64,000 nucleotides of DNA from Pyrinomonadales bacterium (lineage in GTDB: Bacteria > Acidobacteriota > Blastocatellia > Pyrinomonadales > Pyrinomonadaceae). Shown in pieces: positions 3,286 through 63,330 of this stretch. The position numbers and the translations under genes were made by a program. The number at the start of each line of letters is the position of its first letter. Within the stretch, counting starts at the first letter, position 1. The stretch is taken from positions 24,572 through 88,571 of the forward strand of contig JBBSIE010000002.1 in the NCBI GenBank assembly GCA_038232235.1. The letters run 5' to 3'. The notes under the pieces were generated by a model that saw only the letters and a program-made list of their open reading frames with translations, had not been told where the DNA came from and made no database searches.

Positions 3286-3549
3286 TAAACAAAACCGATA
3301 GAAACCATTACAATTCTAAATGATGAAGATATTTGCTAGGTTATATCGGGTTTCTATACGTTGACACCATATTTTTCGTGTGATATTTTGAAGAGGTTTT
3401 TGTCATTATAAATAATTGTTCAAGACAAATTAAAGAAACTTTTTTATACAATCGGCGTTAGATATTGCTAACGCTAACATTACTATTTAGGTCGTTTTAA
3501 CGATTCGCCCTAACCCTGAAAATTCATCAAAGGAGTATAGACGAACTCA

Positions 3550-39412: not shown

Positions 39413-39419
39413 TGATTTT

Positions 39420-40943: not shown

Positions 40944-41093
40944 TTTTTGGAAATAGAATGAAAATTGTCATCAAAAAAGAACATACGAAACCGAAATGTT
41001 CAATGTTCTGTGATAAATAATATATGATAATGCGGAAATGTTGAAAGATTGGCGCGGTTTATTCTTTCAATTGCAGTTCTTTTCAGCTAAAAT

Positions 41094-42071
41094 ATGGCAA
41101 AAATGTCTGAAATAAACAACACGACGACAAAAAAAACACCATCGCCCGACTGGTTTGTGCGCGGAATTTTGACCAAACTCGGCGAAATGTTCGACCAATT
41201 TACGGGCAGAAACTGGAAACCGTCGAGCAGTTTGGCGACCAGCGAATTGATTGAAAAATTAAAAAAACTCCTCGACGCGGAAGCCAGAGACGAAGGCGCG
41301 CGCGGCAAATTCGTGCCGCACAACATCAAACTTTTAATGCAGTGGGATAAATTTTCGACGGATTCGGAGAATGCGATGAAAAAACTCGAAGACGAATTAT
41401 TAATCGCCGCGATTGACCACATCAACGACAGGCGTTATCACACTTTCGCGCCGATGAAACTGGAAATAAAAAACGATTATTTCACCGAAGGTGTGAAACT
41501 TCAGGCGAGTTTCGGCGGCTTTGCCGAAAATAACGAGCGCGATGTTGCCGTCAATGTAACCGTTCCCGATTTGAAAAATGTGATTCTTAATCCGGTTGCG
41601 GAAGAAATCGTCGAACCGGAAAAGGAAATCTTCGTTGCGGAATTCGCTCTCAACGGCGCGGCGAAAAAAGTAAAATTGACGTTTGATGAAAAAGAGAGAA
41701 AAAGTGTCGGCAGAACAAAGGAAAATGATTTGGCGATTGACGACGCGAGCGTTTCAAAAATACACGCCGCGCTCGTTTTGAATTCCGACCGGCAATTAAT
41801 GGTCGCCGACACGGGTTCGACCAACGGAACATTTATCAACGGCGAACGTATCGCTTACGGCAGAGCATTTGTAATAAAAGACGGCGATAAATTGAAATTC
41901 GGCACGGTTGAAGTCGCGCTCGGACACATCGCAGCCGAAGCCGCTGAATCAATCGCCGCCGAAGATTTTTCGACTAATGACGATGTGCAAATTCCTGAAA
42001 ATTCTGCGGCGGAAAGCGATTTAAATTTAACGAAACGGATTGTCGTATCGAACTTCGACGACGGCAAATAA
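41094..42071 (+). CDS. FhaA-like protein (DUF3662 + FHA)
   Basis: The N-terminal FVRGILTKLGEMFD..FVPHNIKLLMQWDKF is DUF3662-like. The C-terminal FHA domain reads SVGRTKENDLAIDDASVSKIHAALVLNSDRQLMVADTGSTNGTFING. Confidence 0.85.
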   Translation: MAKMSEINNTTTKKTPSPDWFVRGILTKLGEMFDQFTGRNWKPSSSLATSELIEKLKKLLDAEARDEGARGKFVPHNIKLLMQWDKFSTDSENAMKKLEDELLIAAIDHINDRRYHTFAPMKLEIKNDYFTEGVKLQASFGGFAENNERDVAVNVTVPDLKNVILNPVAEEIVEPEKEIFVAEFALNGAAKKVKLTFDEKERKSVGRTKENDLAIDDASVSKIHAALVLNSDRQLMVADTGSTNGTFINGERIAYGRAFVIKDGDKLKFGTVEVALGHIAAEAAESIAAEDFSTNDDVQIPENSAAESDLNLTKRIVVSNFDDGK

Positions 42072-42080
42072 TTCAATTGA

Positions 42081-43979: not shown

Positions 43980-45643
43980 AAAATCGCACTTCATCGCACG
44001 TTTTTATACTTCTTTTAATTGTCGCGCTGACGGCAATCGCGCATTATTCGATTCATTACGGCGCGTTGATTCGCGGTTATGAAACTTCATATTTAACGGC
44101 GGAAAGAAATCTTTTTTTGCTTTTTATACTCGCCGTTTTGCCGATTTTTCTTAAAAGGTTCGCAAAATTTCAGGGAAACTGGACGCTTTACACTTCCGCT
44201 GTTTTGCTGTTTTCAATCGGTTTGACCGTGCAGTATCGCCTGTTTTCCGATCCCGAATATATTTCCAAAAAAGATAAAGCCGAAGCGCGGCAGGCAAAGA
44301 TCAAAACTTTGCAGATGCACTATATTCAGGAAAATTATTCGGCGGAAAAGAAACAAATGATGGGACTTCCCGCCACGCCGCCGTCGCCGGTTGATTTGGA
44401 CAAAGAAACGCCGCGTCCGGCAAATGAAGATTTGAGCGACGTTTTTTTGTCGGGCAAAACAATGATTCCGCTGTTTGCAATTGCCTGTTTTGTCGGCGTG
44501 TTTATTTTATTTAAGCGCGACGATGTTCTGGAAATTTTGCAGAGAAACGGCTTTTTGATTGTTTTACTGACGCTTGTGCCGTTGCTTTTGGCGGCGATTA
44601 CGTCAAAGGCAGGAAAATCAATCGGCAATATGACACCTTGGGAGCCGTCGAAAATTCCTTTTTTAATCGGCTTCGCGGCTATTTTGTCGGTTTTATATAA
44701 AAATCTGGCGCGGACTTATTGGGGCGTGCCGCGTGCAAAAGATGTTATTCCGCTGGTCTTTATGGCGATTCTGCCGTTTGTGCCGTTTTTCGTTTTGAAG
44801 GATTTCGGGCAAATGATGGTTTTCAGTTCGGTTTACGCGACGCTTTATCTGATCGCCGTGCGCCGCTTGCCACAGAGAATCGTTCTGGTCGGAAGCGTTG
44901 CATTGCTCATCAGCATTTTAGTTGTCGGCGCATTGCCGGATAAAACACAGGAAAAAATTCCGCTGCTTCCGACGCTGGCAAGTCCGGTCAAAAAAGTTTT
45001 GCCTGATAGAATTCAGCAGCGTTTTCATCTGTGGCTCGACGGTTTCAATCCTCCTTCTCCTGATACGAGTTGGTGGAAGGAAGATTACGACGATTATTAT
45101 GCCGATTTGGTTAAGCGCGACCCGAATCTGCCGCAGATGCTGGAAGAAGAACCGAATTTGCAGAAATCAATCAATGTTGATGCGTGGTTTGACGTTCTGG
45201 CGTTTCAACCGGCGCAGGCGACGTTCGGCGTGGCTTCCGGCGGCACGACCGGACGCGGTTTGGGTTTGGGTTACGTCGAACTGATTCCGGTTTCCGATTC
45301 CGATTATATTTACGCCGCGATTGCCGAAGAACTTGGACTTTTCGGCGGTTTATTGCTAATCTTTGCGCTGATAACTTTTGTCAGCGCGGGAGTTCGCACG
45401 GCTCTGGATGCCAGAGATATGTTCAGCAAACTTTGCGCGATTGGGTTGACGGCGTTTATCGGTTTTCAAGCCCTGGTCAATATGGGCGGCATCACGCGGG
45501 CGTTGCCGATGACCGGAATTACGCTGCCGTTTGTCAGCCACGGCGGTTTCAGTTTAATCACGAGTTTCGTTATGCTCGGAATGCTGATGGCTTTTTCGCA
45601 TCGCAACGCGGTTGATATTCTTCAAGTTCAAAGTTCAAAGTAA
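43976..45643 (+). CDS. FtsW/RodA/SpoVE-family (SEDS) peptidoglycan polymerase
   Basis: ATGA overlap with the PBP gene; polytopic; SDSDYIYAAIAEELGLFGG and GITLPFVSHGGFSL motifs. Confidence 0.88.
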   Translation: MKNRTSSHVFILLLIVALTAIAHYSIHYGALIRGYETSYLTAERNLFLLFILAVLPIFLKRFAKFQGNWTLYTSAVLLFSIGLTVQYRLFSDPEYISKKDKAEARQAKIKTLQMHYIQENYSAEKKQMMGLPATPPSPVDLDKETPRPANEDLSDVFLSGKTMIPLFAIACFVGVFILFKRDDVLEILQRNGFLIVLLTLVPLLLAAITSKAGKSIGNMTPWEPSKIPFLIGFAAILSVLYKNLARTYWGVPRAKDVIPLVFMAILPFVPFFVLKDFGQMMVFSSVYATLYLIAVRRLPQRIVLVGSVALLISILVVGALPDKTQEKIPLLPTLASPVKKVLPDRIQQRFHLWLDGFNPPSPDTSWWKEDYDDYYADLVKRDPNLPQMLEEEPNLQKSINVDAWFDVLAFQPAQATFGVASGGTTGRGLGLGYVELIPVSDSDYIYAAIAEELGLFGGLLLIFALITFVSAGVRTALDARDMFSKLCAIGLTAFIGFQALVNMGGITRALPMTGITLPFVSHGGFSLITSFVMLGMLMAFSHRNAVDILQVQSSK

Positions 45644-45674
45644 GATTTGAATTTTGAACTTTAAACTTTGAACT
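45623..45674. repeat. Heptamer-repeat hairpin (gttcaaa units) spanning the ftsW-like stop and the PP2C start
   Basis: agttcaaagttcaaagt (45625-45641) pairs with the right arm within gaactttaaactttgaact (45656-45674), 16 of 17. The ATG of the next gene is at 45675. Confidence 0.85.
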
Positions 45675-47272
45675 ATGGAAAATAACTTTCAAATTGATTC
45701 GGCTTCGGTTTCGGACAGAGGTTTAAGCAAAAAACGTCCTCAGAATGAAGATTCGTTTTTAGAAATGAATTCACGCGGTCTTTTTGCGGTTGCCGACGGC
45801 GTTGGCGGAGCGCAAGCCGGCGATGTCGCCTCGCAGATGGCGATGGAAATTCTCGGTGAAGCCTTTGTCAATTTGCAGGAAAACGGCGATGTCGAAGAAT
45901 TGATGAAAGTTGCGATTAAACGCGCTAACGAAGCGATTTATCAAATGTCGCACGACATGAAACAGCTTTCGACAATGGCAACAACGATTGTCGCGCTTCA
46001 CATCGCGGGCAATATTGCAACCATTGGTCACGTCGGCGATTCACGTCTTTACCGGCTCGACCCGAATGGAAGACTTTATCGTGAAACGCAGGATCATTCG
46101 GTGGTCGAGGAAGAAGTTCGTGCCGGACGAATGACTGCCGCGCAAGCCGCGACGCATCCGAGCCGCAACGTCATCAGCCGTGCGCTCGGCGCAGATTATG
46201 CGGTTGAAATTGATATGAAAACGATTATGTTCGAGCCACACACGACATTTTTTCTCTGCTCGGACGGCATCACGCGCCATATTGACGATTTTGAACTGCG
46301 CGACCTTTTACTCTCCGGCGATAAACCCGCGAATATCGTGCAAAAAATGAAAGATATTTGCTATCAACGCGGCGCGGAAGACAATTTGACCGCCGTTGTC
46401 GCCAAAGTAACAGATGTCGCTGCAGAAAAGTTTAACGGCGCGAAAAACGAAATTCCCGCCGAATATGAAGAAGCGACGATTGCAACAGCGCGTCCTCCGG
46501 CAGTTGTTGAAGATGCAGTTTTTGCCGAACAATCTTTGCCGGACGAAGAAGTGCCGACTCAAAATCTTCAATCGCCGATGTCTGAAGAACTACAAACGCG
46601 TGAAGTTGTTCAGACAAACCAAAATGAAAATCCCGAAACCGAAAAAAATCGAAATATATTTTCTTTTCCGGCTGAAAGTGCGGATAATAAGCCGATTCAA
46701 AGAAACGAAATTGTCAGAGAGGACAAAACTTATTTTGCAGAAGAAAAAGCCGAAAGCAGTATTCTCGGCAAAATAATAACGCCTTTGCTGACATTTTTTT
46801 TGGGCGGAATTTTATTTGCGGGAATCTATCATTTGTGGGCGCAAAACAATGTCGAACCGCAAGTTCCACAATTAGTTCAGCAATCGCCCGACATTCCGTT
46901 TAAAGCTTTTGAAGACAATCGGCGCAATGTTGACGGAAATCCGCGGCAATATATTGCAACCAATTTAACTTCAACACCGGAAGATGCCGAAGATTTTTAT
47001 CTGATGGGACGTGCTTATCTGCTGATCGGTAAATTTCCCGAAGCTAAAGAGATGTTTTTACAGGCAAAAGACCGCCTTGCACAGACGAGCGAAGTAAATA
47101 ACAGAGTTTTGGCAAATGATATTATTTTGAGTCTGGCTGTTATCAATGACGAATTTGCCAAAAGAGAAGTTGCAAAAGAATTAAATTTGAATATATCCAA
47201 CACAAATACGCAAACTAATTCTAATAATAGCGCAAATTCTCTTCGCGGAACTCAAAATTTTAACGGAAGGTA

Positions 47273-47273
<1 letters not shown>
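45675..47273 (+). CDS. PP2C-family Ser/Thr phosphatase with TM segment and C-terminal TPR-like region
   Basis: NEDSF, FAVADGVGG, GDSRLY and CSDGIT motifs; TM IITPLLTFFLGGILFAGIYHLW. Confidence 0.9.
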
Positions 47274-50101: not shown

Positions 50102-52135
50102 CTAAACCGAAGCGGTTTTCGAGTCATCTTTTTTACTGCGTTTTAGTCCACCGATTTGCACCAAATTTTCACCTTTGATTTCATTTTTCTCTAACACCAT
50201 CTGCTGATAAAGTTTACGCATCATCTGCATTTCTTCAGCGGCGGTTTTCGGTCCTTCCATATCCGGCTTGTTCGGGCGTTCCAAATCAATCGGATTCAAT
50301 TTCAAACCGTGATCGGTGTTGTCGAGTTCGACTTCCTTACCGCGCGCGAAAATTTCGTGGCGACCATTGTCTTTATACCATTGTGCAACCGTCGCGTTTT
50401 GGTGCATATGTTCGATAATGTTTCTCCAACCGATTCCCGTATTATAAGCACAAAAGGAAATTTCACCTTCCTGTGTTCCGTAAGGAATGATGCACATTTC
50501 GGTGCGCCGGAAATCATAATTGAACAAATCCTGAAACCACATTCCCGCAATAAACAAGAAATTCCAAGGGTCTTGACGGCGTTTTTCAATATCTTCAATC
50601 GTCCGCGTTCCATCAACTTTTCCGTAATCTTTACCCGACAAGCCGAACGATTTATCGAACTTTTTCAAGATTCCGCCCAAAGTCAAACTTTTCGGTGCGC
50701 CATACGGATTATAATTTTTAAGCAGTGCCATTCCCATCATAAAATTGGAAAACCATTTTCCGCGAGCCGTGTCGGTGATGTGTTTCATATCTTCGACCAG
50801 TCCGGGAATGCTCAAAAATTCGGGAACGGGAGCCATTTCCTTTGTTTCTTTATTAATCATCACGGCGGTTCCGACACCGCAGTTCGGATGACAGCCGCAG
50901 GAAACTTGTCCCCAATCAGCTTCCGGTCCGTGAACCAAATCGGCAAAATCGGCGAACGCGCCCATCAATGAAAGCGGAAACCAATCACGCAGCGGCTCGG
51001 TAATACCGACCTGTTTCTGAACGTCTTGAGCCAGATGCGAAAGCGTATAACGCTGCTGCAAACGTCTTTGTTCTGTAATATGCTCGTCGCGTCCGGTGAA
51101 AGAAACGGGTTGAAATGACACAAATGAAACTTTTTTTGGATTTTCCAATGCGAAACGGACAATTGAGCCGACTTGATCGTTATTTACTCCATTAACTAAT
51201 GTTGTCACGAGAACAATATCAACTCCGGCTTCGTGCAAGTTGTTGATCGCGCGTAATTTAACATCAAAAAGATTGCCGACTTGTCTGTGCGAGTTAGCAT
51301 CGTTGCCAACGCCGTCGAATTGCAGGTAAACAAATCTCAAACCGGCTTCAGCGGCTTCGCGGCAAAATTCTTTTGATTTTGCAAACTCGATTCCGTTAGT
51401 TGCGGCTTGCACCGAATTGTAGCCGACTTCGCGCGAATAACGCACAGCTTCGAGAAAATAAGGTGAAAGCGTCGGTTCGCCGCCCGAAAACTGCACCGAC
51501 ATCTGACGACGCGGTTTGATCGAAATCGCGTTGTCGAGAATTTCCTTGACATCTTCCATCGAAAGTTCGTGAACAAAACCGACTTGATTCGCGTCCATAA
51601 AACACGGGTCGCACATCATATTGCAGCGATTTGTCAGATCAACCGTCAGAACCGCGCCGCGTCCGTATTTAATAGTTGATGAGCCGTGATTGTGCAGTTT
51701 TTCGTCGTTGTGCGATTGAATGTCGCGTCCGGGAAAATTGGCTTCGATGTGCTGCAAAAACTTTGAATCAATCGCCATTAAATCTTCAAAATGTCCGTGA
51801 TCGGGACAATCTTTAATCATCCAGATTTCACCGTCGCGTTCAATAATTTGTGCTTTGATCTCGCCGACTTTTTCATTAACTAATATGCCGACTTCTTTTT
51901 TGCCGGCTAAAATATCTTCACGCGCTTCAATTACACAGTTTGGGCAGAGCGAATCGGTCGTGCGCGGAAAACCGAGCGTTGGTTTGGTCTTCTGCCAAGA
52001 TTTAAGCAATGGCTTATCCGACCATTTCGGCGTAAAAGACGGATTCGGTTTGTATTTATTAACGGCTTTGACAGCGTTGAAAACACCGCCGGCAATATAC
52101 GTCAAGCCTTTTTCAAAATGTTTAACAGGTGTCAT
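50102..52135 (-). CDS. Large radical SAM enzyme (COG1964 / MJ0619-type); candidate membrane-spanning-lipid synthase (Tes/Mss) homologue
   Basis: 677 aa; N-terminal CPNC..x~50..CPDHGH metal site; radical SAM CNMMCDPC; SVQFSGGEPTL; a long Cys-containing C-terminal extension (GQVSCGCHPNCG). Confidence 0.6.
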   Translation of the reverse strand: MTPVKHFEKGLTYIAGGVFNAVKAVNKYKPNPSFTPKWSDKPLLKSWQKTKPTLGFPRTTDSLCPNCVIEAREDILAGKKEVGILVNEKVGEIKAQIIERDGEIWMIKDCPDHGHFEDLMAIDSKFLQHIEANFPGRDIQSHNDEKLHNHGSSTIKYGRGAVLTVDLTNRCNMMCDPCFMDANQVGFVHELSMEDVKEILDNAISIKPRRQMSVQFSGGEPTLSPYFLEAVRYSREVGYNSVQAATNGIEFAKSKEFCREAAEAGLRFVYLQFDGVGNDANSHRQVGNLFDVKLRAINNLHEAGVDIVLVTTLVNGVNNDQVGSIVRFALENPKKVSFVSFQPVSFTGRDEHITEQRRLQQRYTLSHLAQDVQKQVGITEPLRDWFPLSLMGAFADFADLVHGPEADWGQVSCGCHPNCGVGTAVMINKETKEMAPVPEFLSIPGLVEDMKHITDTARGKWFSNFMMGMALLKNYNPYGAPKSLTLGGILKKFDKSFGLSGKDYGKVDGTRTIEDIEKRRQDPWNFLFIAGMWFQDLFNYDFRRTEMCIIPYGTQEGEISFCAYNTGIGWRNIIEHMHQNATVAQWYKDNGRHEIFARGKEVELDNTDHGLKLNPIDLERPNKPDMEGPKTAAEEMQMMRKLYQQMVLEKNEIKGENLVQIGGLKRSKKDDSKTASV

Positions 52136-55458: not shown

Positions 55459-56403
55459 ATGCAAACGGCAGTATTAGAAGCAAATACACCAACGAAAGAT
55501 CATTCACTCGAGGCAAACATCGGCAACACGCCTTTGATTCGTCTGCGAAGCGTAACGAAAGATTTGCCTGCAAATATTGAGATTTATGCAAAGGCAGAAT
55601 TTATGAATCCGGGCGGTTCGGTCAAAGACCGCGCAGCTTTGGCGATGATTTTGGCGGGCGAAAAATCTGGCGAACTCAACAAAAATAAAACGATTTTGGA
55701 CGCGACGAGCGGAAATACGGGAATTGCCTACGCGATGATCGGCGCGGCGCGCGGTTATAAAGTTTGTCTGACTTTGCCGAAAAATGCGGGCGCGGAGCGC
55801 AAACAGATTTTGAAACTCTACGGCGCGGAAATCATCGAAACCGACCGGATGAACGGAACGGACGGCGCACAAATTAAAGCGAAAGAATTGGTCGCCGAAT
55901 TTCCCGACAAATATTTTTATCCCGATCAATACAACAACGAAAATAACTGGAAAGCGCATTACAATACGACTGCGCCGGAAATTTGGGAACAGACAAACGG
56001 ACGCATCACGCATTTTCTCGCCGGACTCGGAACGACGGGAACTTTCGTCGGAACTTCGCGCCGTTTGAAAAAATTCAACCCGAAAATTCAAGCGATTTCG
56101 ATGCAGCCCGCGTCGCCTCTGCACGGTTTGGAGGGAATGAAACATCTTGCAACGGCGATTGTGCCGGGAATTTATGACGCGAATATTGCCAATCAAAACG
56201 TCGAAGTTACAACTGAAGACGCGCAGAAAATGACGCGGCGTTTGGCGCGTGAAGAAGGTTTATTCGTCGGTGTCAGCGCGGGCGCAAATGTTTTCGCCGC
56301 GCTTCTTCTGGCGCGTGAATTAAAAGAAAATGCCGTCATTATCACGATTCTGTGCGACGGCGGCGGCAAATATCTGAGCGAAGATTTTTGGGACGAAGCG
56401 TAA
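55459..56403 (+). CDS. cysM: Cysteine synthase, CysM-like (PLP-dependent)
   Basis: Start at M8 (AAGGGA RBS). NPGGSVKDR (PLP Lys), TSGNTGIA, and GTTGT motifs. Confidence 0.85.
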   Translation: MQTAVLEANTPTKDHSLEANIGNTPLIRLRSVTKDLPANIEIYAKAEFMNPGGSVKDRAALAMILAGEKSGELNKNKTILDATSGNTGIAYAMIGAARGYKVCLTLPKNAGAERKQILKLYGAEIIETDRMNGTDGAQIKAKELVAEFPDKYFYPDQYNNENNWKAHYNTTAPEIWEQTNGRITHFLAGLGTTGTFVGTSRRLKKFNPKIQAISMQPASPLHGLEGMKHLATAIVPGIYDANIANQNVEVTTEDAQKMTRRLAREEGLFVGVSAGANVFAALLLARELKENAVIITILCDGGGKYLSEDFWDEA

Positions 56404-56431
56404 ATCAGATTTTAGTAATTCTTTTTGTAAA

Positions 56432-56728
56432 ATGATTTATTCAGCGGGTTGGTGTTCAATATACGGAGATGGAGGGGATTTATTTTTCTTGAAAAATATT
56501 CGCTCTGGTAAAATTTTTTTCGCTTGTGATGCTTGTGGTTGCGCTTGGAAAGATTCGCCTGATATTGAAGAAAATTGGGAAATTTTGCAACCTATTGATC
56601 TTGCGCCTAATGGTTTTTCATTAGCTACAAAGCCCGATATTGAAATTGTCAGTCTTGCTCATCTTATTTTTAGAAACTATTCTGATTATAATTTTTTATT
56701 TAACGATAAAGATGGTTTTATTCCATAA
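56432..56728 (+). CDS. Hypothetical small protein
   Basis: 98 aa, AT-rich codon usage, with a CDACGC motif. No family recognised. Confidence 0.35.
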   Translation: MIYSAGWCSIYGDGGDLFFLKNIRSGKIFFACDACGCAWKDSPDIEENWEILQPIDLAPNGFSLATKPDIEIVSLAHLIFRNYSDYNFLFNDKDGFIP

Positions 56729-56782
56729 ATTACAAATCTTTGAAGCATAAAGCTAAATAATTGCCTCCGACATTAATTACAT

Positions 56783-56815
56783 TTGACACATTTCGATTTT
56801 ATCCTGTAAATTGCG
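56783..56815 (+). repeat. Promoter-like direct repeat, copy 1 (upstream of the antitoxin)
   Basis: ttgacacatttcgattttatcctgtaaattgcg is 29/33 identical to 57505-57537. It contains TTGACA-N17-GTAAAT. Confidence 0.8.
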
Positions 56816-56849
56816 CGACGTGCTATACTGCTAAAGAAAGTAAATAATT

Positions 56850-57089
56850 ATGCCGACACAAACAATAAATCTCGATAAAGTTGAAAAGCAGTTAGCTGAA
56901 TTGTTGGCGATTGTTGAAGATAATGGCGAAATCATGATTGCTCAAAACGGCAAACCTCTGGCGCGTTTAGAACTTGTTGCACAGCCGAAGAAAAAGAAGC
57001 GCATTGCCGGTCTGAATCGCGGGATGATTTGGACGAGCGAGGATTTTGACGCGCCCTTGCCGGATGAGTTTTGGCTTGGAAAAGAATGA
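56850..57089 (+). CDS. Type II antitoxin (Phd/YefM-like)
   Basis: 79 aa. The stop overlaps the toxin start (ATGA). The C-terminal GLNRGMIWTSEDFDAPLPDEFW is typical of VapC-partner antitoxins. Confidence 0.7.
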   Translation: MPTQTINLDKVEKQLAELLAIVEDNGEIMIAQNGKPLARLELVAQPKKKKRIAGLNRGMIWTSEDFDAPLPDEFWLGKE

Positions 57090-57478
57090 ATTCGGATTTG
57101 CTTTTCGATACGCACAGCTTTATTTAGTGGGCGGACGCTTCCAAAAAACTTTCGCCTGACGCATTAGCCGCGCTCGAAGATGAAAACAATCGTTTATTTT
57201 TGAGCGATGTCAGCATTTGGGAAATGCAAATCAAGGTTCAACTTGGCAAGATGAAGTTAAAACTGCCGTTGCCGGATTTGATCGAAAGCCAGAAAACCAA
57301 CAACGACTTAGAAATTCTGCACATTACAACCGAACATATTTTGGAGTTGGATAAATTGCCTTTTCATCACAGAGACCCGTTTGACCGTTTATTGATAGCA
57401 CAAAGTATTTTTGAAAATTATGCAATCGTAACTGTAGATTCAGAGTTTACCGCTTATCCGGCAAAGTTACTTTGGTAA
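57086..57478 (+). pseudogene. vapC: PIN-domain VapC toxin interrupted by an in-frame amber codon
   Basis: MNSDLLFDTHSFI*WADASKKLS..LFLSDVSIWEMQIKVQLGKMKL..LPFHHRDPFDRLLIAQS. TAG at 57125-57127 sits where the family has the conserved Trp (TGG). Confidence 0.8.
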
Positions 57479-57504
57479 CGAATAACCATTAAAATCACTT
57501 CGAC

Positions 57505-57537
57505 TTGACACACTTTGAGTTTATCCTGTAAATTTCG
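57505..57537 (+). repeat. Promoter-like direct repeat, copy 2 (downstream of vapC, upstream of the metY-like gene)
   Basis: ttgacacactttgagtttatcctgtaaatttcg, 722 nt from copy 1. Confidence 0.8.
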
Positions 57538-57647
57538 TTCTAGTTCTTTAAGTAACTTTCAAAATTTTGAAAGCTTAAAAAGTGGCGATTTAAGGTAACT
57601 TGCTCCACTTCAAAAAACTGCTAAACGCCGCAAAGAGAATTTTTCAA

Positions 57648-57690
57648 AAACTCTCGTGCTACAAGGTTTAGCACGAGAGTTTCTTATTTT
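57648..57690 (+). promoter_or_regulatory. Intrinsic-terminator-like hairpin 14 nt upstream of the metY-like ATG (attenuator, or terminator of the TA module)
   Basis: aaactctcgtgct (57648-57660) pairs with agcacgagagttt (57670-57682), followed by cttatttt. Confidence 0.5.
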
Positions 57691-57703
57691 GTAAAATAAT
57701 GTT

Positions 57704-58888
57704 ATGATCGATTTTTCGATAAACACAAAACTCGTCCACGCGGGCGAACGTCGGACACAGCCGACTGGAAAGCCGGTTGCCACGCCGCTTTATGCGACGG
57801 CGACTTATACTTACGATTCGATGGCGGAAATGGACGCGGCTTTTGCGGGCGAAGGCGGCGATTATATTTATTCGCGTTACGGAAATCCGACGGTTGCGGC
57901 ACTTGAAGACGCGCTCGCGGCGATTGAAAACGGTAAGGTTGCGGTGGCTTTCGGTTCGGGAATGGCGGCGATTCACGCGGCTTTGTTTGCCTGCGAAATC
58001 ACGAACGGTTCGATTGTGCTTGCGTCGCAGGATTTATACGGCGCGTCGTATGATTTGCTGAATAAAATTTTCGGCGTTTACGGCGTGAAAACGAAAACTG
58101 CCGATTTTAATAATTTGGATGAATTGAAAAATAAAGTTTTAGAATTGAAACCGCGTGTTTTGTTGGCGGAAACGATTTCAAATCCGCTTTTGAAGATTTG
58201 CGATATTGAAAAAGTCGCGGAAATCGCACACGACGTGGGCGCGAAATTGATTGTTGACAATACTTTCGCATCGCCTTTTTTATGTCAGCCGCTGACGTTG
58301 GGCGCAGATTTTTCGGTTCATTCGGCGACGAAATATCTAAGCGGACACGCCGACGCAACCGGCGGAATTGTCGTTTCAAACGATGAATTTGACCGTCCGA
58401 TGCTCGACGGAATAAAGAAACTCGTCGGCGGCATTTTGAGTGTTTGGGAAGCGCATCAGATTTTGCGCGGCGTGAAAACGCTCGGTTTGCGGCAGGAAAA
58501 ACAATGTCGAAACGCCGAAATATTGGTGAAAACGCTGGCGAAAAATGAATTTATAAAAAAGGTTTATTATCCGCTCACTGACGATAAAGAATTGACAAAA
58601 AAAGTTTTGCGCGACGATTTCGGCGGCGCGTTGGTTTCGATAAAATTGAAAAACGAGACCAGAGAAGCGGCTTGGAAATTTATGGATTCGTTAAAACTAT
58701 GCGTTCGCGCCACGAGTTTGGGCGATGTCTATACGCTCGTTTCGCATTCGGCTTCGTCGTCGCACCGCGAACTTTCGCCGAAACGCCGCGCCGATCTTGG
58801 GATTTCCGACGGACTCGTGCGAATTTCGGTTGGGATTGAAGACTTGAAAGATATTATTGAAGACATTGAGCAGGCTTTAAGAAAATAA
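57704..58888 (+). CDS. Cys/Met-metabolism PLP enzyme (O-acetyl/succinyl-homoserine sulfhydrylase or cystathionine gamma-synthase-like)
   Basis: PVATPLYATATY, YSRYGNPT and HSATKYLSGHAD (PLP Lys). 394 aa. Confidence 0.85.
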   Translation: MIDFSINTKLVHAGERRTQPTGKPVATPLYATATYTYDSMAEMDAAFAGEGGDYIYSRYGNPTVAALEDALAAIENGKVAVAFGSGMAAIHAALFACEITNGSIVLASQDLYGASYDLLNKIFGVYGVKTKTADFNNLDELKNKVLELKPRVLLAETISNPLLKICDIEKVAEIAHDVGAKLIVDNTFASPFLCQPLTLGADFSVHSATKYLSGHADATGGIVVSNDEFDRPMLDGIKKLVGGILSVWEAHQILRGVKTLGLRQEKQCRNAEILVKTLAKNEFIKKVYYPLTDDKELTKKVLRDDFGGALVSIKLKNETREAAWKFMDSLKLCVRATSLGDVYTLVSHSASSSHRELSPKRRADLGISDGLVRISVGIEDLKDIIEDIEQALRK

Positions 58889-58891
58889 TTA

Positions 58892-58977
58892 TCCACAGAT
58901 AAACACAGATGAAGTCAGATATTTTGAAAAATTTTATCAAATAAAAATTATTTTTCTTATCTGTGTTTATCTGTGGA
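58892..58977. repeat. cagataaac-family hairpin, perfect 19-bp stem
   Basis: 58892-58910 tccacagataaacacagat is the exact reverse complement of 58959-58977, with a 48-nt AT-rich loop. Confidence 0.95.
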
Positions 58978-58991
58978 CAAAAAATAATATT

Positions 58992-59423
58992 ATGATTTCG
59001 ATCAGTGAAGAATTAATCGAGCAAATCAAAAAGCACGGCGAAAAGACTTATCCGCACGAGTGCGGCGGAATGTTAATCGGACATTTTGATGCTGAGAAAG
59101 GCAAACAAATCGTCGAACTTTTGCCGATGGAAAATGCGATGGACAAAGCCGAACAGCATAATCGCGTTTTGATTTTGCCGAAAGACGTGCTTCGCGCCGA
59201 ACGGCAAGCGCGTGAAAAAAAACTCGATGTCGTCGGTTATTATCATTCGCACCCGGACGATAAAGCTGTGCCGTCGCAGTTTGATTTAGAACATGCGCTT
59301 CCGGTTTGGTCATATATTATTGTGTCGGTTTTACAAGGCAAAGCGGTTGATGTGCGCTCGTGGCAAATGGAAAATGACCGCTCGAAATTTAATGAAGAAG
59401 AAATAAAAAGGGAAGAAATTTAG
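58992..59423 (+). CDS. JAMM/MPN+ metalloprotease (Mec/HcyD/QbsD-like)
   Basis: YPHECGG (Glu) and the YYHSHPDDKAVPSQFD JAMM motif. 143 aa. Confidence 0.88.
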   Translation: MISISEELIEQIKKHGEKTYPHECGGMLIGHFDAEKGKQIVELLPMENAMDKAEQHNRVLILPKDVLRAERQAREKKLDVVGYYHSHPDDKAVPSQFDLEHALPVWSYIIVSVLQGKAVDVRSWQMENDRSKFNEEEIKREEI

Positions 59424-59510
59424 CCGCAGATAAACGCAGATAATTTAAGAAAGATAAATCAAATGCGAAGCAATCTATAAATTGGAATAAAATCTGCATT
59501 TATCTGCGGC
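59423..59510. repeat. cagataaac-family hairpin, 18/19-bp stem
   Basis: gccgcagataaacgcagat (59423-59441) pairs with atctgcatttatctgcggc (59492-59510), with a 50-nt loop. Confidence 0.92.
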
Positions 59511-59537
59511 TATTAAATGGTTTAAGGAGTAAATTTT

Positions 59538-60986
59538 ATGGCAGTGACAATAGTAATTCCGACACCTTTGCGACAGTTCGCTGGCGGAAAATCCGAAATT
59601 GAGGTCGAAGCGACAACGGCGGGCGAAGCGTTGGAAAAATTGACAACGAAACACGCCGAGTTAAAAAAACATCTTTATAACGACGGCGGAAATTTGCGAA
59701 ATTTCGTTAATGTCTATGTCGGCGATGAAGATATTCGTGATTTGGACGGACTTGAAACGCAAGTTAAAAGCGGCGGCGAAATTTTGATTGTGCCTTCGAT
59801 TGCGGGCGGAAATCTCGCGGCACAACCTAAAACATCGGAAGAATTGCCGACGCTTTCGACTGAAGAATACGCCAGATATTCGCGGCATTTGATTTTGCCC
59901 GAAGTCGGTATGGAAGGACAGAGAAAATTAAAAGCGGCGCGTGTTTTGATGATCGGTACGGGCGGTTTGGGTTCGCCTTTGGGCTTATATTTGGCGGCGG
60001 CGGGCATCGGCACAATCGGTTTGGTTGATTTCGATGTCGTTGACGAGTCGAATCTCCAACGCCAAATTATTCACGGCACAAAAGATGTCGGACGACCAAA
60101 AATCGAATCGGCGCAAGACCGTTTGAAAGATATCAATCCGAATACAAAAATCGAAGCACACGAAACTCGTCTGACGAGCGGAAATGCGCTTGAATTGTTT
60201 AAAGATTTTGATGTCGTCGTTGACGGAACGGACAACTTTCCGACGCGCTATTTGGTTAATGACGCTTGTGTTTTGACCGGAAAGCCGAATGTTTACGGTT
60301 CTATTTTCCGTTTTGAAGGACAGGCGAGTGTTTTTTGGGCGGAAAAAGGCGCGTGTTACAGATGTTTGTATCCTGAACCGCCGCCGCCGGGACTTGTTCC
60401 GAGCTGCGCGGAAGGCGGAGTTTTGGGCGTTTTGCCCGGAATTGTCGGCACGATTCAGGCGAATGAAGTCTTAAAAGTTATTTTGGGCGCGGAAGGAATT
60501 TTATTAAATCGGCTTTTGCTTTTCGATGCGTGGAAAATGAAATTCCGCGAATTGAAACTCAAGAAAAATCCCGATTGCCCGATTTGCGGCGACAATCCGA
60601 CGATCAAGGAATTGATTGATTATGAAGCATTTTGCGGTTTAAATTTGCCGACTGAAACTCCCGTTTTAGAAGAAATTACAGTAACGGAATTAAACGATTT
60701 GATAAAAAATAACAGCGAAGTTCAGATTATTGATGTGCGCGAACCGCACGAATTTGAAATTGCCAAAATTCCGAATACAAAACTTATTCCGCTCGCGCAA
60801 GTTGTCAATCGCGCTAAGGAAATTGACCAATCGCGTACGGCAATTATTCACTGCAAAGCCGGCGGACGCAGCGCGAAAGCAATTCAAGCGTTGCAGGAAA
60901 ACGGTTATAAAGGCAAATTATTGAATTTGAAAGGTGGAATTACGGCTTGGTCGGACGAAATTGATTCGAGCGTTCCCAAATATTAA
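59538..60986 (+). CDS. Fusion: CysO/ThiS/MoaD-like beta-grasp (ending GG at aa 90-91) + MoeB/ThiF-type E1 adenylyltransferase + rhodanese (MoeZ-like)
   Basis: Aa 1-91 read MAVTIVIPTPLRQFAGGK...GGEILIVPSIAGG. Then YSRHLILPEVG, GTGGLGSP and CxxC pairs (CYRC, CPIC). The rhodanese active site is HCKAGGRS. Confidence 0.85.
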   Translation: MAVTIVIPTPLRQFAGGKSEIEVEATTAGEALEKLTTKHAELKKHLYNDGGNLRNFVNVYVGDEDIRDLDGLETQVKSGGEILIVPSIAGGNLAAQPKTSEELPTLSTEEYARYSRHLILPEVGMEGQRKLKAARVLMIGTGGLGSPLGLYLAAAGIGTIGLVDFDVVDESNLQRQIIHGTKDVGRPKIESAQDRLKDINPNTKIEAHETRLTSGNALELFKDFDVVVDGTDNFPTRYLVNDACVLTGKPNVYGSIFRFEGQASVFWAEKGACYRCLYPEPPPPGLVPSCAEGGVLGVLPGIVGTIQANEVLKVILGAEGILLNRLLLFDAWKMKFRELKLKKNPDCPICGDNPTIKELIDYEAFCGLNLPTETPVLEEITVTELNDLIKNNSEVQIIDVREPHEFEIAKIPNTKLIPLAQVVNRAKEIDQSRTAIIHCKAGGRSAKAIQALQENGYKGKLLNLKGGITAWSDEIDSSVPKY

Positions 60987-61014: not shown

Positions 61015-61049
61015 CCGCTCTCAAATTACGAATGAGAGCGGATTTTTTT
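61015..61049 (+). terminator. Rho-independent terminator
   Basis: ccgctctca (61015-61023) pairs with tgagagcgg (61033-61041), followed by T7. Confidence 0.85.
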
Positions 61050-61103
61050 CATACTCAAATCCGAATTCACATAATCCGCTGCAAATGGCATAATTTATTA
61101 GCG

Positions 61104-62036
61104 ATGAACGATTACCGAATTTTTTATTCACCTTATTATTATGCCGAAATCGGCGAAAATCACGTTTTTCCGATAAAGAAATTTGAACTTGTGCGCGATA
61201 AACTTCTCGCCGAAGGAACTTTGCGAGAAAATGAAATTATTGAGCCGCAACCGGCGAAAATCGAAGATTTGTTGCTCGTTCACACGGAAGATTACATAAC
61301 GCATCTGCGCGCCGGAACGCTTGATAAAAAAGAAGTTCGACGGCTCGGTTTGCCTTGGTCTGAATCGCTCGTTCGGCGAACATTTCTTGCAGTTTCGGGA
61401 ACGATCAACGCTTCACTTCACGCGCTCGAAACCGGAATTGCGTCAAACCTCGCGGGCGGAACGCATCATTCTTTTCCTGATCGCGGCGAAGGTTTTTGCG
61501 TTCTAAATGATGTTGCCGTTGCGATTAGAGTTTTGCAGCGCGAAAATCTGGCAAGCAGATTTTTGATTATTGACTGCGACGTTCATCAAGGCAACGGCAC
61601 GGCGTTTATTTTTCAAAACGAAGAAGAAATTTTTACATTTTCGATGCACGGCGAGAAAAATTATCCGCTGTTTAAGGAAAAATCCAATCTCGACATCGAA
61701 TTGCGCGACGGAACTTCCGACGCGGAATATCTCGAAACCTTGAGCGAAGCACTGCCGCGAATTTTTATGCACGATCCCGATATTGTTTTTTATCTCGGCG
61801 GCGCAGACCCGTTTGAAAAAGACAAACTCGGACGGCTTAAACTTACGATGGAAGGTTTGATGAAACGCGACGAAATGGTCTTGGAATTTGCCAAACAACG
61901 CGAAGTGCCGATTGTTACGGTAATGTCGGGCGGTTATGCGAAAGACATAAACGACACGGTTGAAATCCATTCAAACACAATTCGCGCGGTGAAAAAAGTT
62001 TTCGGTCAATCGCAGAGTCAGAATGCTTTCGCCTAA
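61104..62036 (+). CDS. Histone deacetylase-family (HDAC/AcuC-like) deacetylase
   Basis: Start at M25, after the terminator. GGTHHSFPDRGEGFCVLNDVAVA, IDCDVHQGNGT and GGADPF motifs. Confidence 0.88.
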   Translation: MNDYRIFYSPYYYAEIGENHVFPIKKFELVRDKLLAEGTLRENEIIEPQPAKIEDLLLVHTEDYITHLRAGTLDKKEVRRLGLPWSESLVRRTFLAVSGTINASLHALETGIASNLAGGTHHSFPDRGEGFCVLNDVAVAIRVLQRENLASRFLIIDCDVHQGNGTAFIFQNEEEIFTFSMHGEKNYPLFKEKSNLDIELRDGTSDAEYLETLSEALPRIFMHDPDIVFYLGGADPFEKDKLGRLKLTMEGLMKRDEMVLEFAKQREVPIVTVMSGGYAKDINDTVEIHSNTIRAVKKVFGQSQSQNAFA

Positions 62037-62049
62037 ATGTTTTGCCGGA

Positions 62050-62622
62050 TTATTTTGCATTTGCAGATTCTTCGACGGTTTTGTCCAAACGATTTTTGAC
62101 CGTCAAATCATAGCCGACAAATTTTTGTGTTAACTTGCCGTTGCGGTCAAAAACGGCAGTTTGCGGAATTTCGTCTCGAGTCGCAAAAACAAACTGCATT
62201 AAGGCATCTTCGGGAGTTGCCAAAACGTAATTTATCTTCAATTTTTCGGCAAACGCGGGAATTTTCGGACGATCATCTTCGCCGCCGACATTTAATCCGA
62301 CGATCTGCATATTCTCTGCGCCGTATTTTGCTTGTAGTTCATTCAAATGTGGGATTTCCTCCAAACACGGCGGGCAGTAAGTTGCCCAAAAATCCAACAC
62401 GACGACTTTTCCCTGCAAATCTTTGAGTTTTTGCTCTTTGCCATCGAGCGTCGTCCAACTCATTTCGCCCAACGGTTTCGACGGCGGCAGCGGCACATTT
62501 GTCTGCGGAACGCTGTTAATTGAAACGGGTTTGTTGGAAACGGAAACCGGCGCGGCTGCCGGACGACACGCTAAAGCAAGTAAAAAGTAAAAAGTAAAAA
62601 GTAAAAAGTAAAAATATCTCAT
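62050..62622 (-). CDS. TlpA/ResA-like thiol-disulfide oxidoreductase lipoprotein
   Basis: LALAC lipobox; VLDFWATYCPPCLEEIP; thioredoxin fold. The signal peptide is encoded by the gtaaaaa repeat. Confidence 0.85.
   Translation of the reverse strand: MRYFYFLLFTFYFLLALACRPAAAPVSVSNKPVSINSVPQTNVPLPPSKPLGEMSWTTLDGKEQKLKDLQGKVVVLDFWATYCPPCLEEIPHLNELQAKYGAENMQIVGLNVGGEDDRPKIPAFAEKLKINYVLATPEDALMQFVFATRDEIPQTAVFDRNGKLTQKFVGYDLTVKNRLDKTVEESANAK
62580..62614. repeat. (gtaaaaa)x5 tandem heptamer inside the 5' end of a CDS
   Basis: Read directly. On the coding strand it gives MRYFYFLLFTFYFLL. Confidence 0.95.
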
Positions 62623-62633
62623 AGAAAGTTATT

Positions 62634-62714
62634 GTTAAATGTTAAATCGTAAATTGTAGAATGTAAATCTTTAACCGTTTGTTCTTCATTTACCATTTAC
62701 CATTTACCATTTAC
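62634..62714. repeat. Opposed heptamer arrays (gttaaat-family x5 and catttac x4)
   Basis: gttaaat gttaaat cgtaaat tgtagaa tgtaaat at 62634-62668; catttac x4 at 62687-62714. The two arms are imperfectly complementary. Confidence 0.8.
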
Positions 62715-62724
62715 CATTAAACCT

Positions 62725-63330
62725 GTGAGTTTTTATCCGCCGAAAATTAACGAAAGGTTTCAACATCCGCGAAATGTCGGGAAATTGTCCGATGCAAATG
62801 CTGTCGGAACGAGCGCGAGTTTTATTTGCGGCGCGTTTGTGCGCGTATTTTTGCGGGTTGAATTGAAAACGAAGGAAATTCTCGAAGCAAAATTTAAGTC
62901 AAACGCTTGCGGATTTGCGATCGCGGCGGCGGATGTTTTAACGGAAAAAATCGTCGGAAAACGATTAATTGAAATTCACAAATTAGACAGGAAAATTTTG
63001 CAGTTGCAAGTTGAAGAAGAACTCGGAAAATTTTCGGCGCGTCGCGTGCATTGTCTGCTGTTGTGTTTGGACGCGATGCAAGCGGCGTTTGCTGATTTTC
63101 GCGCTTTTCAGATTGAAGAATTTACGGGCGAAAAAGCTCTGATTTGCACTTGTTTCGGTGTTTCGGAGGAAACTATCGAGAATGTAATTAAGAAAAATTC
63201 GCTTGAAACCGTCGAAGAAGTTTCCGAAATTTGCAGCGCGGGCAGCGGCTGCGGTTCGTGTCAGCCTTTGATTCAGGAAATTCTGGATGTTTTACACGAA
63301 GAAAATTATGTTATAATCGAAAACTATTGA
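62725..63330 (+). CDS. NifU-N/IscU-like domain fused to a BFD-like [2Fe-2S]-binding domain
   Basis: GTG start. FQHPRNVGKL..GTSASFICGAFVRVFL..SNACGFAIAA, then CTCFGVSEETI..CSAGSGCGSC. Confidence 0.7.
   Translation: MSFYPPKINERFQHPRNVGKLSDANAVGTSASFICGAFVRVFLRVELKTKEILEAKFKSNACGFAIAAADVLTEKIVGKRLIEIHKLDRKILQLQVEEELGKFSARRVHCLLLCLDAMQAAFADFRAFQIEEFTGEKALICTCFGVSEETIENVIKKNSLETVEEVSEICSAGSGCGSCQPLIQEILDVLHEENYVIIENY

Follow-up and report, generated by a model that had tools for sequence, protein, structure and literature searches.

Among the closest described systems is the Mec/CysO/CysM/MoeZ cycle of Mycobacterium tuberculosis (Burns et al. 2005, summarised in PMC3227635). An operon type described by Iyer, Burroughs and Aravind (2006), 4c, encodes ThiS/MoaD together with JAB, E1-rhodanese and cysteine synthase; the sections of that survey cited here (PMC1779556) place the type in Rubrobacter, Solibacter, Salinibacter, Chloroflexus and other genomes, and already propose a cut by JAB as the means of exposing the C-terminus of fused ThiS/MoaD. 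The same sections describe variant thiamine fusions of ThiS and ThiF in Campylobacter and Clostridium tetani (~265 aa), which lack rhodanese and JAB and are accompanied by thiG/thiH/thiE and an extra free ThiS. The experimental precedent for a carrier fusion cleaved after Gly-Gly (GG) is MoaX, the fused MoaD-MoaE of M. tuberculosis, in which a cut at Gly82-Ser83 is needed for activity (PMC4326299). Removal of residues beyond GG by a JAMM enzyme is cited for QbsD/QbsE and put forward for CxnF/CxnE (PMC5925218), and in the Streptomyces MetM/MetO route the carrier extension is removed by JAMM (GapMind 2026 preprint). Such precursors, reported or proposed, are HcyS-Ala (HcyD, Wolinella succinogenes), QbsE-CF (QbsD, thioquinolobactin), CxnE with a decapeptide (CxnF) and MetO (Mec), from which JAMM strips the post-GG residues before E1 adenylation.

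In the soil acidobacterium studied here all four ORFs of interest sit on the plus strand, where the first-pass annotation had placed them, within a window of 64 kb (the whole stretch of DNA that was analysed). The features are as follows:

55459-56403, plus strand: CysM-type PLP cysteine synthase, 314 aa from ATG
57648-57682, plus strand: terminator-like hairpin with a 14-bp stem and T-run, from a pattern scan alone
57704-58888, plus strand: Cys/Met-metabolism gamma-family PLP enzyme, 394 aa, MGL/MetB/MetZ-like
58992-59423, plus strand: JAMM/MPN+ metalloprotease, Mec/QbsD/HcyD-like, 143 aa
59538-60986, plus strand: ThiS/CysO-ThiF-rhodanese fusion, 482 aa
59538-59810, plus strand: CysO-type ThiS/MoaD beta-grasp carrier domain, residues 1-91, ending ...VPSIAGG (Pfam, NCBIfam, PDB)
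59808-59813, plus strand: predicted JAMM scissile bond, Gly91-Asn92
59811-59852, plus strand: flexible linker, residues 92 to ~105 (low conservation, variable length, low pLDDT)
59877-60581, plus strand: E1-like MoeB/ThiF/MoeZ adenylation domain, Pfam 114-348 (Pfam, NCBIfam, PDB)
60678-60956, plus strand: rhodanese domain, residues 381-473 (Pfam), active-site loop H-C439-KAGGRS

All four proteins gave Pfam matches, and the recommended domain search returned ThiS, ThiF, Rhodanese and Prok-JAB, so that the parts list is indeed that of a CysO-CysM-Mec-MoeZ type system, with the same four protein families. Shared with CysO-CysM-Mec(+)-MoeZ of M. tuberculosis are a GG-ending carrier, an E1 with C-terminal rhodanese, a JAMM protease and a CysM-type synthase. 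However, moeZ is unlinked to mec-cysO-cysM there, while here all genes lie in one cluster and the E1 polypeptide has the carrier as its N-terminal domain; an additional obligatory processing step after Gly91 would therefore be needed. The ClpS and helical-protein genes of the actinobacterial operon type 4d are absent. The gene set is that of type 4c, and the order matches that of Rubrobacter xylanophilus, CysM, JAB, ThiS (91 aa), E1 (392 aa), but ThiS and E1 are separate genes in the 2006 examples, and the sections of PMC1779556 cited here hold no description of a ThiS-E1-rhodanese fusion. As in MoaX, a ThiS/MoaD-type carrier precedes a partner enzyme in one polypeptide; in MoaX this enzyme is MoaE, which accepts the sulfur in the molybdopterin pathway, and here it is E1, in a putative cysteine pathway. 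The variant thiamine fusions likewise carry a beta-grasp N-terminal to an E1-like domain (PMC1779556, same sections), whereas the present one is CysO-like with invariant GG, adjoins JAMM and CysM, and has no free carrier in its operon. Novelty is thus less than had been implied, since the operon type and the JAB cleavage idea date from 2006 (PMC1779556, in the sections cited) and MoaX is a precedent (PMC4326299), although no biochemical study of precisely this fusion was found in the literature.

The claim that the carrier is fused in frame to its own E1-rhodanese held, as a single 482-aa ORF matches ThiS at residues 6-91 (E=5.8e-10), ThiF at 114-348 (E=1.3e-84) and Rhodanese at 381-473 (E=5.6e-16). 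Residues 1-91 align full-length to the stand-alone ThiS/MoaD family protein 4n6e_B (E=5.6e-17) and to M. tuberculosis CysO (3dwg_C, E=3.4e-13), and score 42.2 bits with moaD_arch. In the AF2 model, of moderate quality only (mean pLDDT 64), this domain has beta-grasp-like secondary structure at pLDDT 65-90, and residues 87-124 fall below 50. The E1 domain matches MoeB PRK07411 (573 bits), MoeZ PRK07878 (506 bits) and PRK08762 (460 bits, cut-off 449), and among structures Uba4 (6yub, 4.2e-65), ThiF (1zfn) and MoeB (1jw9). Its motifs, GTGGLGS at 140-146, the CxxC pairs C273/C276 and C347/C350, and Cys290 in PSCAEGG, are at least 98% conserved in the fusion alignment, as are C439, G442, R444 and S445 of the rhodanese loop HCKAGGRS (Cys439 codon at 60852-60854).

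Neither a frameshift nor misassembly accounts for the fusion: at least 120 homologues, all of those among the matches listed, have it (PF02597, PF00899 and PF00581 together, 481-502 aa), and of the 80 best independent assemblies 73 keep the frame uninterrupted. The best 80 genome loci span Acidobacteriota, Gemmatimonadota, Ignavibacteria and others. As judged from these sequences, it is a real and widespread variant of a known pathway. Seven relatives (L063, L068, L069, L071, L072, L078 and L080) encode the carrier as a separate ORF ending in GG plus 1-9 residues, the same kind of tail as in the JAMM-trimmed precursors, and their E1 starts at its own Met-Ala, ~5-35 residues past the GG position. 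In the E1 tree they are scattered among fused proteins, at four or more positions; the two states are therefore functionally interchangeable. Carriers ending exactly at GG make up only 7 of 127 representatives with a recognisable ...GG end, and carriers of this clade normally extend past GG. Public annotations already name relatives 'sulfur-carrier protein adenylyltransferase/sulfurtransferase'.

The junction reads ...VPSIAGG(91)/NLAAQ..., with Gly91 at nt 59808-59810. Over 74 sequences the mean top-residue frequency is 0.97 across the last six positions of the carrier, PSIAGG being near-invariant and GG invariant among fused proteins, and P1' is S, A or N in 65 of 74. The linker is far more variable (mean top-residue frequency 0.39 vs 0.84 for E1), the distance from GG to RYSRH ranging from 12 to 46 aa. 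By established MoeB/ThiF/Uba4 chemistry, E1 can adenylate the terminal Gly only when its alpha-carboxylate is free, and use of the carrier in cis without release, which the first-pass annotation had offered as an alternative, is for this reason chemically implausible. Since the carrier is the front end of its E1, cleavage by the adjoining protease would almost certainly be required. Chemistry and comparative genomics together suggest that JAMM cleavage after Gly91 releases the carrier, the comparative part being the GG end, the linker, the tails of unfused relatives and a JAMM gene in 72 of 72 informative loci (those with 1.5 kb or more of sequence upstream).

We therefore consider it likely that the locus is a CysO/CysM/Mec/MoeZ-type cysteine operon in which carrier and E1 are merged in one ORF and JAMM releases the carrier. 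Adjacent carrier and E1 genes would have merged, giving a 52.5-kDa precursor composed of the CysO-like domain (1-91), a disordered linker (92 to ~105), E1 and rhodanese. JAMM would first hydrolyse the Gly91-Asn92 bond, leaving two products: a carrier of 9.7 kDa whose Gly-Gly carboxylate is free, and an E1-rhodanese of 42.8 kDa. By homology to MoeZ/Uba4/MOCS3, E1 would then adenylate Gly91, which the rhodanese would turn into a thiocarboxylate through its Cys439 persulfide. By homology to M. tuberculosis, CysM would make aminoacrylate from O-phosphoserine or O-acetylserine, to which the carrier thiocarboxylate would add, an S-to-N acyl shift giving carrier-Gly-Gly-Cys; the same JAMM would hydrolyse this to cysteine and recycled carrier. 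Precursor processing and the step of each cycle would be the same post-GG hydrolysis, and the fusion would therefore cost nothing new, even though the 'extension' is a 391-residue functional enzyme instead of the 1-10 residues of known precursors. The 42.8-kDa fragment is about the size of stand-alone MoeZ.

It is unlikely that the fused beta-grasp is a permanent non-catalytic Ubl (regulatory, autoinhibitory or docking), with the true carrier free-standing elsewhere and trimmed or recycled by JAMM. The Campylobacter/Clostridium fusions do coexist with separate ThiS, and their Ubl is called distinct from ThiS (PMC1779556, in the sections cited). Three relatives (L042, L053 and L061) also encode an additional free carrier close to the operon, but each of these is paired with its own ThrC-like MetM-type enzyme. 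The fused domain is itself nearest to bona fide CysO carriers over its full length, a non-carrier domain would have no reason to keep PSIAGG, and unfused relatives place their separate carrier gene at the same position. The proposed check for a stand-alone CysO-like gene came out negative within the 64-kb window, which is the inspected part of this genome; no moa or thi genes were found in it either.

A comparably low probability is given to release after Gly91 by an unlinked housekeeping protease or by autocatalysis, JAMM being only a Mec-type carrier-Cys hydrolase. No JAMM adjoins MoaX, unlike here; the enzyme that cuts MoaX is described as 'as yet unidentified', in E. coli the cut is made incorrectly (PMC4326299), and the present fusion might likewise depend on a protease encoded elsewhere. 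The JAMM protein matches Prok-JAB (E=1.9e-25) and, as closest solved structure, 2kcq ('Mov34/MPN/PAD-1 family', 2.2e-22), which we take to be a protein of Salinibacter ruber, one of the 4c genomes. Its motif E23...H85-S-H87...S95..D98 (core at nt 59244-59285) is at least 97% conserved over 78 loci, and a catalytically intact copy adjoins the fusion on the same strand in all 72 informative loci. This adjacency does not speak specifically for processing of the precursor, because Mec-type recycling explains it equally (PMC3227635). Against another protease stand the JAMM kin reported or proposed to strip post-GG extensions (QbsD/QbsE, CxnF/CxnE, Mec for MetO), the GG-X bond, identical to the one cut in the carrier-Cys adduct, and the small P1' residue, resembling the known C/A substrates; no second protease is conserved in the operon.

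Still less probable is that the system serves, primarily or additionally, SAMP/TtuB/Urm1-type protein conjugation, the carrier being attached to target lysines and JAMM acting as deconjugase. Iyer et al. raised this for JAB-associated operons (PMC1779556, in the sections cited), and SAMP1/HvJAMM1 control enzyme activity through reversible conjugation (PMC4443979). In NCBIfam the archaeal SAMP system gives the best matches (isolated 91-aa domain, SAMP1 58.4 bits, cut-off 60; JAMM, desampylase; E1, UbaA 339.6 bits), yet all lie under curated cut-offs, no E2-like gene was found at the locus, and CysM linkage (5' of the fusion in 62 of 72 informative loci) and the rhodanese fusion indicate sulfur transfer. 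If it occurs, conjugation would probably come on top of sulfur transfer and not replace it. Two proteins made from one ORF by internal E1 initiation and termination or drop-off past the carrier are very unlikely, in spite of the separate E1 start in split relatives and a TTG codon (Leu103) after GGAAGAA in this linker, as fused forms have no stop codon or conserved Met there, no sequence sign of programmed termination was seen, and the carrier would be left without a free Gly91 carboxylate.

CysM matches PALP (E=1.2e-72) and passes TIGR01136 cysKM (359.6 bits, cut-off 344.15), and lies under the cut-off of TIGR01138 cysM (370.9 vs 394.2 bits). Being no nearer to the M. tuberculosis enzyme (3dwg_A, 4.3e-55) than to E. 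coli CysM (2bhs, 3.7e-72), it leaves carrier dependence and acceptor substrate unproven.

Of the MetY/MetB-type assignment made earlier for the second PLP enzyme (Cys_Met_Meta_PP, E=4.6e-114), the gamma-family, MGL/MetB-like part stood; a MetY orthologue was ruled out (TIGR01326 OAH sulfhydrylase, 315 bits vs cut-off 495). The protein is under every NCBIfam equivalog cut-off (MGL 348/666, OSHS 339/510), and with PDB scores of 307 bits for MGL, ~250 for CGS/CGL and ~230 for MetY it is closest to methionine gamma-lyase and CGS-type enzymes. It could make homocysteine from the same thiocarboxylate or act in transsulfuration, which accounts for it equally well. As it is not MetY and is inside the operon in only 27 of 72 loci, the suggested sharing of one carrier by Cys and Met arms is speculation. 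W. succinogenes has a MetY-type sulfhydrylase and adjoining sulfate-assimilation genes, neither of which was found in the 64-kb window.

The hairpin lies directly 5' of the gamma-family gene, and from the PLP gene through JAMM to the fusion the pattern scan gave no similar one between genes. At the hairpin the cluster may divide into two transcription units, cysM (with a TA insert) and PLP-JAMM-fusion. A TTG at 55438, 5' of the CysM ATG, is a possible alternative start.

The cluster comprises four genes on the forward strand, and the Pfam assignments agree with the first-pass annotation on the presence and position of each:

55459-56403, forward strand: CysM (Pfam PALP), above the NCBIfam cysKM subfamily cut-off
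57704-58888, forward strand: gamma-family PLP enzyme of 394 aa (Pfam Cys_Met_Meta_PP)
58992-59423, forward strand: JAMM protein of 143 aa (Pfam Prok-JAB, 1.9e-25)
59538-60986, forward strand: fusion protein of 482 aa (Pfam ThiS at residues 6-91, ThiF at 114-348, Rhodanese at 381-473)

The last protein had been read as a beta-grasp sulfur carrier joined in frame to an adenylyltransferase (E1) and a rhodanese domain, and this reading holds. Of the solved structures, the stand-alone carrier 4n6e_B matches residues 1-91 over their whole length (E=5.6e-17), as does M. tuberculosis CysO, 3dwg_C (E=3.4e-13); in isolation these residues reach 58.4 bits with the NCBIfam model SAMP1, the cut-off of which is 60. 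The domain is a ThiS/MoaD-family beta-grasp with a Gly-Gly end, and in the fusion this end is internal, Gly91 (codon 59808-59810) being residue 91 of 482 and not the C-terminus. An AlphaFold2 model of moderate quality (pLDDT 64, pTM 0.48), for which the alignment was shallow (sequences at 85% identity or more) and which was used solely for the secondary structure of the N-terminal domain and for linker disorder, gave a beta-grasp-like order of strands and helices for residues 1-86 (pLDDT 65-90) and values under pLDDT 50 for residues 87-124.

The remainder of the fusion is an adenylyltransferase (ThiF, E=1.3e-84) with a C-terminal rhodanese (E=5.6e-16), in which the active-site loop reads HC(439)KAGGRS. 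The nearest NCBIfam models of the E1 are MoeB/MoeZ and its nearest solved structures are Uba4, ThiF and MoeB. The fusion passes the cut-off of PRK08762 (460 vs 449 bits); the E1 scores 505.6 bits with the MoeZ equivalog PRK07878, under the cut-off of 647 and thus too low for a strict assignment as a MoeZ orthologue. Conservation reaches 98% or more for the GxGxxG motif, the two CxxC pairs, Cys290 and Cys439. The JAMM protein, with 2kcq as its closest solved structure, has an intact E...HxH...S..D motif and a gene linked to that of the carrier, and its catalytic residues E23, H85, H87, S95 and D98 show conservation of 97% or more. A CysM-type PLP cysteine synthase lies within the same cluster, scoring no nearer to CysM of M. 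tuberculosis than to that of E. coli. As judged from sequence, all catalytic modules of the M. tuberculosis CysO/CysM/Mec/MoeZ cycle are present and intact.

All three Pfam domains occur together, within 481-502 aa, in the best 120 database clusters (85-100% identity), where the relatives are named 'MoeB' or 'sulfur-carrier protein adenylyltransferase/sulfurtransferase'. Scanning a single genome for each species gave 589 related loci, the best 80 of which were inspected; they belong to Pyrinomonadaceae (91% identity), other Blastocatellia, Bryobacterales, Terriglobia and Vicinamibacteria, and also to Gemmatimonadota, Ignavibacteria, a Bacteroidetes MAG and others. The frame across the junction is uninterrupted in 73 of these 80, and an assembly or frameshift artefact is ruled out by a frame common to 73 independent assemblies and to the best 120 database clusters. 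On this comparison of sequences the fusion is a genuine, conserved variant of a known pathway.

In the other seven loci (L063, L068, L069, L071, L072, L078 and L080) the carrier and the E1 are encoded separately. Here the carrier ORF stops one to nine residues past GG (GGR*, GGTA*, GGLRGENIGD* etc.), and the E1 starts afresh from a Met-Ala of its own. Since these loci occupy four or more separate positions, each amid fused relatives, in a neighbour-joining tree built on the E1 region, the fused and split states have been interconverted repeatedly and must be functionally equivalent. In all seven, both ORFs share a reading frame with 1-2 stop codons between them (junction near locus position 8290), which could reflect a recent split through a nonsense mutation within the linker, or readthrough; it could also reflect a bias in the tblastn ranking of loci, because in-frame pairs yield a single long HSP. 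The carrier/E1 pair of Solibacter usitatus listed in the supplement of PMC1779556 is out of frame with a 4-nt overlap. An exact stop at GG was found in only 7 of 127 carrier-clade representatives with a recognisable ...GG end, a set rich in contig-end fragments and frameshifted products that serves qualitatively and yields no fused/unfused ratio.

The same carrier clade contains further candidate architectures, each seen in single metagenomic representatives (database proteins P0121, P0219, P0154, P0245, P0235 and P0238). They include a tandem, polyubiquitin-like carrier-GG-linker-carrier, a PALP enzyme whose C-terminal part is a carrier that stops at GG, a carrier-rhodanese lacking the E1, and a carrier joined to a DSP-type phosphatase or to a glyoxalase-fold domain.

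For 72 loci the sequence extends 1.5 kb or more upstream; all of them have a JAMM gene on the same strand no further than 2 kb away, and 62 have CysM upstream. The gamma-family PLP gene is present in 27 of the 72 and restricted to the Pyrinomonadaceae-like branch; it is always inside the operon, in the order CysM-PLP-JAMM-fusion or PLP-CysM-JAMM-fusion. In the window the PLP gene is preceded by a strong hairpin that resembles a terminator. Rfam returned no match at gathering thresholds, and no riboswitch, for the whole window, and a regulatory RNA upstream of the cluster is ruled out on this basis. In relatives such as locus L005 cysM and the PLP gene adjoin; here a gap of ~1.3 kb between them is occupied by a Cys-containing ORF of 98 aa (56432-56728, 28 nt past cysM, no Pfam match) and by an inserted toxin-antitoxin pair (region 56850-57478) made up of a Phd/YefM antitoxin (56850-57089) and a PIN/VapC toxin. 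The toxin frame begins near 57086 (MNSDLLFDTHSFI) and carries an in-frame TAG ~13 codons in, ahead of the ORF 57200-57478, so it is probably a pseudogene, or else contains a sequencing error.

The gene content corresponds to operon type 4c of Iyer, Burroughs and Aravind (2006), that is ThiS/MoaD, JAB, E1-rhodanese and cysteine synthase, a type that includes an acidobacterium (PMC1779556). The Rubrobacter entry in its supplement has the gene order identical to that of the window, but unfused. The ThiS+ThiF fusions described in PMC1779556 differ from the present protein: they are ~265 aa long, lack the rhodanese and lie in thiG/thiH/thiE operons with an extra free ThiS, whereas the window protein is 482 aa long, includes the rhodanese and is partnered by CysM and JAMM. 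Our search found no paper characterising a CysO-MoeZ fusion; the 2009 E1 review by Burroughs, Iyer and Aravind lay outside it and may list the architecture. The fusion merits a biochemical test, though it would not greatly surprise a specialist.

It is established that the last glycine of the carrier is adenylated on its free alpha-carboxylate by E1-type enzymes, that the rhodanese persulfide converts the adenylate to a thiocarboxylate, that CysM adds this to aminoacrylate, and that Mec hydrolyses the carrier-Cys amide so formed (PMC3227635); CysM of M. tuberculosis is O-phosphoserine-dependent. Because Gly91 sits in a peptide linkage, the bond past it would have to be broken first, ahead of every other step. 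The suggestion that the fusion works in cis, with no release of the carrier, fails at this point, given that adenylation requires a free alpha-carboxylate.

The adjacent JAMM protein is probably the enzyme that cuts. Hydrolysis past Gly91 would free a carrier of predicted mass 9,720.9 Da and an E1-rhodanese of 42,770.7 Da, the latter having by computed mass the size of stand-alone MoeZ. Several lines of evidence argue for the JAMM protein: GG-X hydrolysis is the same reaction that Mec performs in every cycle; for kindred JAMM enzymes, trimming of residues beyond GG has been reported or proposed (QbsD/QbsE-CF and CxnF/CxnE, PMC5925218; Mec in MetO maturation, GapMind 2026 preprint); the unfused relatives bear just such short tails; and the JAMM protein is the sole protease conserved in the operon. 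The scissile region is, in addition, an unconstrained linker of low model confidence. In 74 fused sequences the mean top-residue frequency is 0.97 over the six residues through GG (PSIAGG), 0.84 in the E1, 0.69 in the whole carrier and 0.39 in the stretch past GG; the spacing from GG to the E1 motif RYSRH varies from 12 to 46 residues, and 65 of the 74 have S, A or N directly past GG. The main uncertainties are that the recycling role already accounts for the adjacency of the JAMM gene, and that for the analogous fusion MoaX (MoaD-MoaE) the protease is as yet unidentified (PMC4326299). Such release was foreseen in general terms in 2006 (PMC1779556), and MoaX is its experimental analogue.

A more far-reaching proposal, improbable when its parts are taken jointly, is that the fusion is zymogen-like, that the JAMM cut is a regulated commitment step and that in Pyrinomonadaceae one carrier feeds both CysM, for cysteine, and the MGL/MetB-like enzyme, for homocysteine. 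The cut would then unmask the carrier and free the carrier-binding site of the E1 at once, on a trigger such as oxidative stress or sulfur supply, and the fusion would be a bacterial counterpart of ubiquitin precursors. Ubiquitin is made only as fusion precursors.

The PLP enzyme is not of the MetY type of W. succinogenes. It reaches no NCBIfam equivalog cut-off, with the MetY-type model TIGR01326 scoring 315 bits vs a cut-off of 495 in a match split into two stretches, and among solved structures MGL is nearest (307 bits), followed by CGS/CGL (~250), OSHS (242) and MetY-type enzymes (~230, fragmented). The operon position of the enzyme is compatible with carrier-dependent homocysteine synthesis and equally with transsulfuration from newly made cysteine. 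The idea that one carrier serves both the Cys and the Met arm agrees with gene position, but is weakened by dedicated second homocysteine carriers in related lineages. Three Blastocatellia loci (L042:3531-5098; L053, about 3408-5000; L061:1620-3176, minus strand) encode, ~4 kb away from their CysM-JAMM-fusion operon, a free carrier that terminates in ...AIAGGC and shares 46-47% identity with the fused domain. Directly next to it is a threonine-synthase-like (ThrC-like) PLP enzyme of 414-418 aa, which bears a Cys-rich motif at its N-terminus. By analogy, this pair looks like the MetM/MetO route from O-phosphohomoserine to homocysteine, a thiocarboxylate route described in Streptomyces (Hasebe 2024, as given in the GapMind 2026 preprint), and it would need the JAMM and E1 of the operon.

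Other pathways fare less well in the window. The MetM/MetO route lacks a ThrC-like gene and a second carrier there; indeed, the check for a free-standing carrier found none within the 64 kb (best non-self HMM match E=0.22). For the HcyS/HcyF/HcyD/MetY pathway (operon type 4e) both the MetY-type enzyme and a sulfate/sulfite-assimilation linkage are absent, with no sulfite reductase, PAPS reductase or ATP sulfurylase among the scanned ORFs of the window. Pfam detected no moa, thi, cysE or sulfate-assimilation genes among the larger ORFs across 64 kb, which speaks against an E1 dedicated to molybdopterin or thiamin: a dedicated MoeB is disfavoured also by the adjacent JAMM and CysM, and a variant-thiamine ThiS+ThiF fusion by the length of 482 aa, the rhodanese and the same two partners. 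The E1 may have an added MoCo role after release, by analogy with MoeZR (PMC3227635). Just downstream of the cluster, at 62050-63330, are a redoxin of secreted or lipoprotein-like type on the minus strand and a NifU-N + BFD [2Fe-2S] protein; a cysteine desulfurase beside this NifU gene, as sulfur donor, is absent, the window ending in a CNNM/DUF21-like membrane protein.

If the JAMM protein excises the carrier from its own E1, the two form a natural, genetically linked protease-substrate pair for GG-exposing processing of bacterial Ubls, one that bears on MoaX and would be relevant to the origin of ubiquitin precursor processing. To our knowledge, the protein-thiocarboxylate cysteine route has been studied almost only in M. 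tuberculosis; our reading, if true, means that it is common among soil Acidobacteriota and in several more phyla, and corrects the generic 'MoeB' label that these genes usually get. The practical consequence is modest: pathway-reconstruction tools should count ThiS-ThiF-rhodanese beside JAMM and CysM as CysO+MoeZ. Were the one-carrier reading true, this would be a two-amino-acid thiocarboxylate pathway; we know of no member of the MGL/MetB-like PLP class that accepts protein thiocarboxylates.

A histone-deacetylase-family gene (acetoin/acetylpolyamine amidohydrolase-like; 61032-62036, forward strand) starts 45 nt past the fusion gene, from which no terminator separates it; it lies beside the operon in none of the best 80 related loci and is ruled out as a member of the system. 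Upstream, an unusually large radical SAM protein of 677 aa (50102-52135, minus strand) carries an HMPTM-type N-terminal zinc ribbon (PF23545). Finally, 38465-47273 holds an envelope/signalling block with two FHA-domain proteins, a Ser/Thr kinase with an SH3 domain, a PBP transpeptidase, FtsW/RodA and a PP2C phosphatase, an arrangement best known from Actinobacteria and found here in an acidobacterium.
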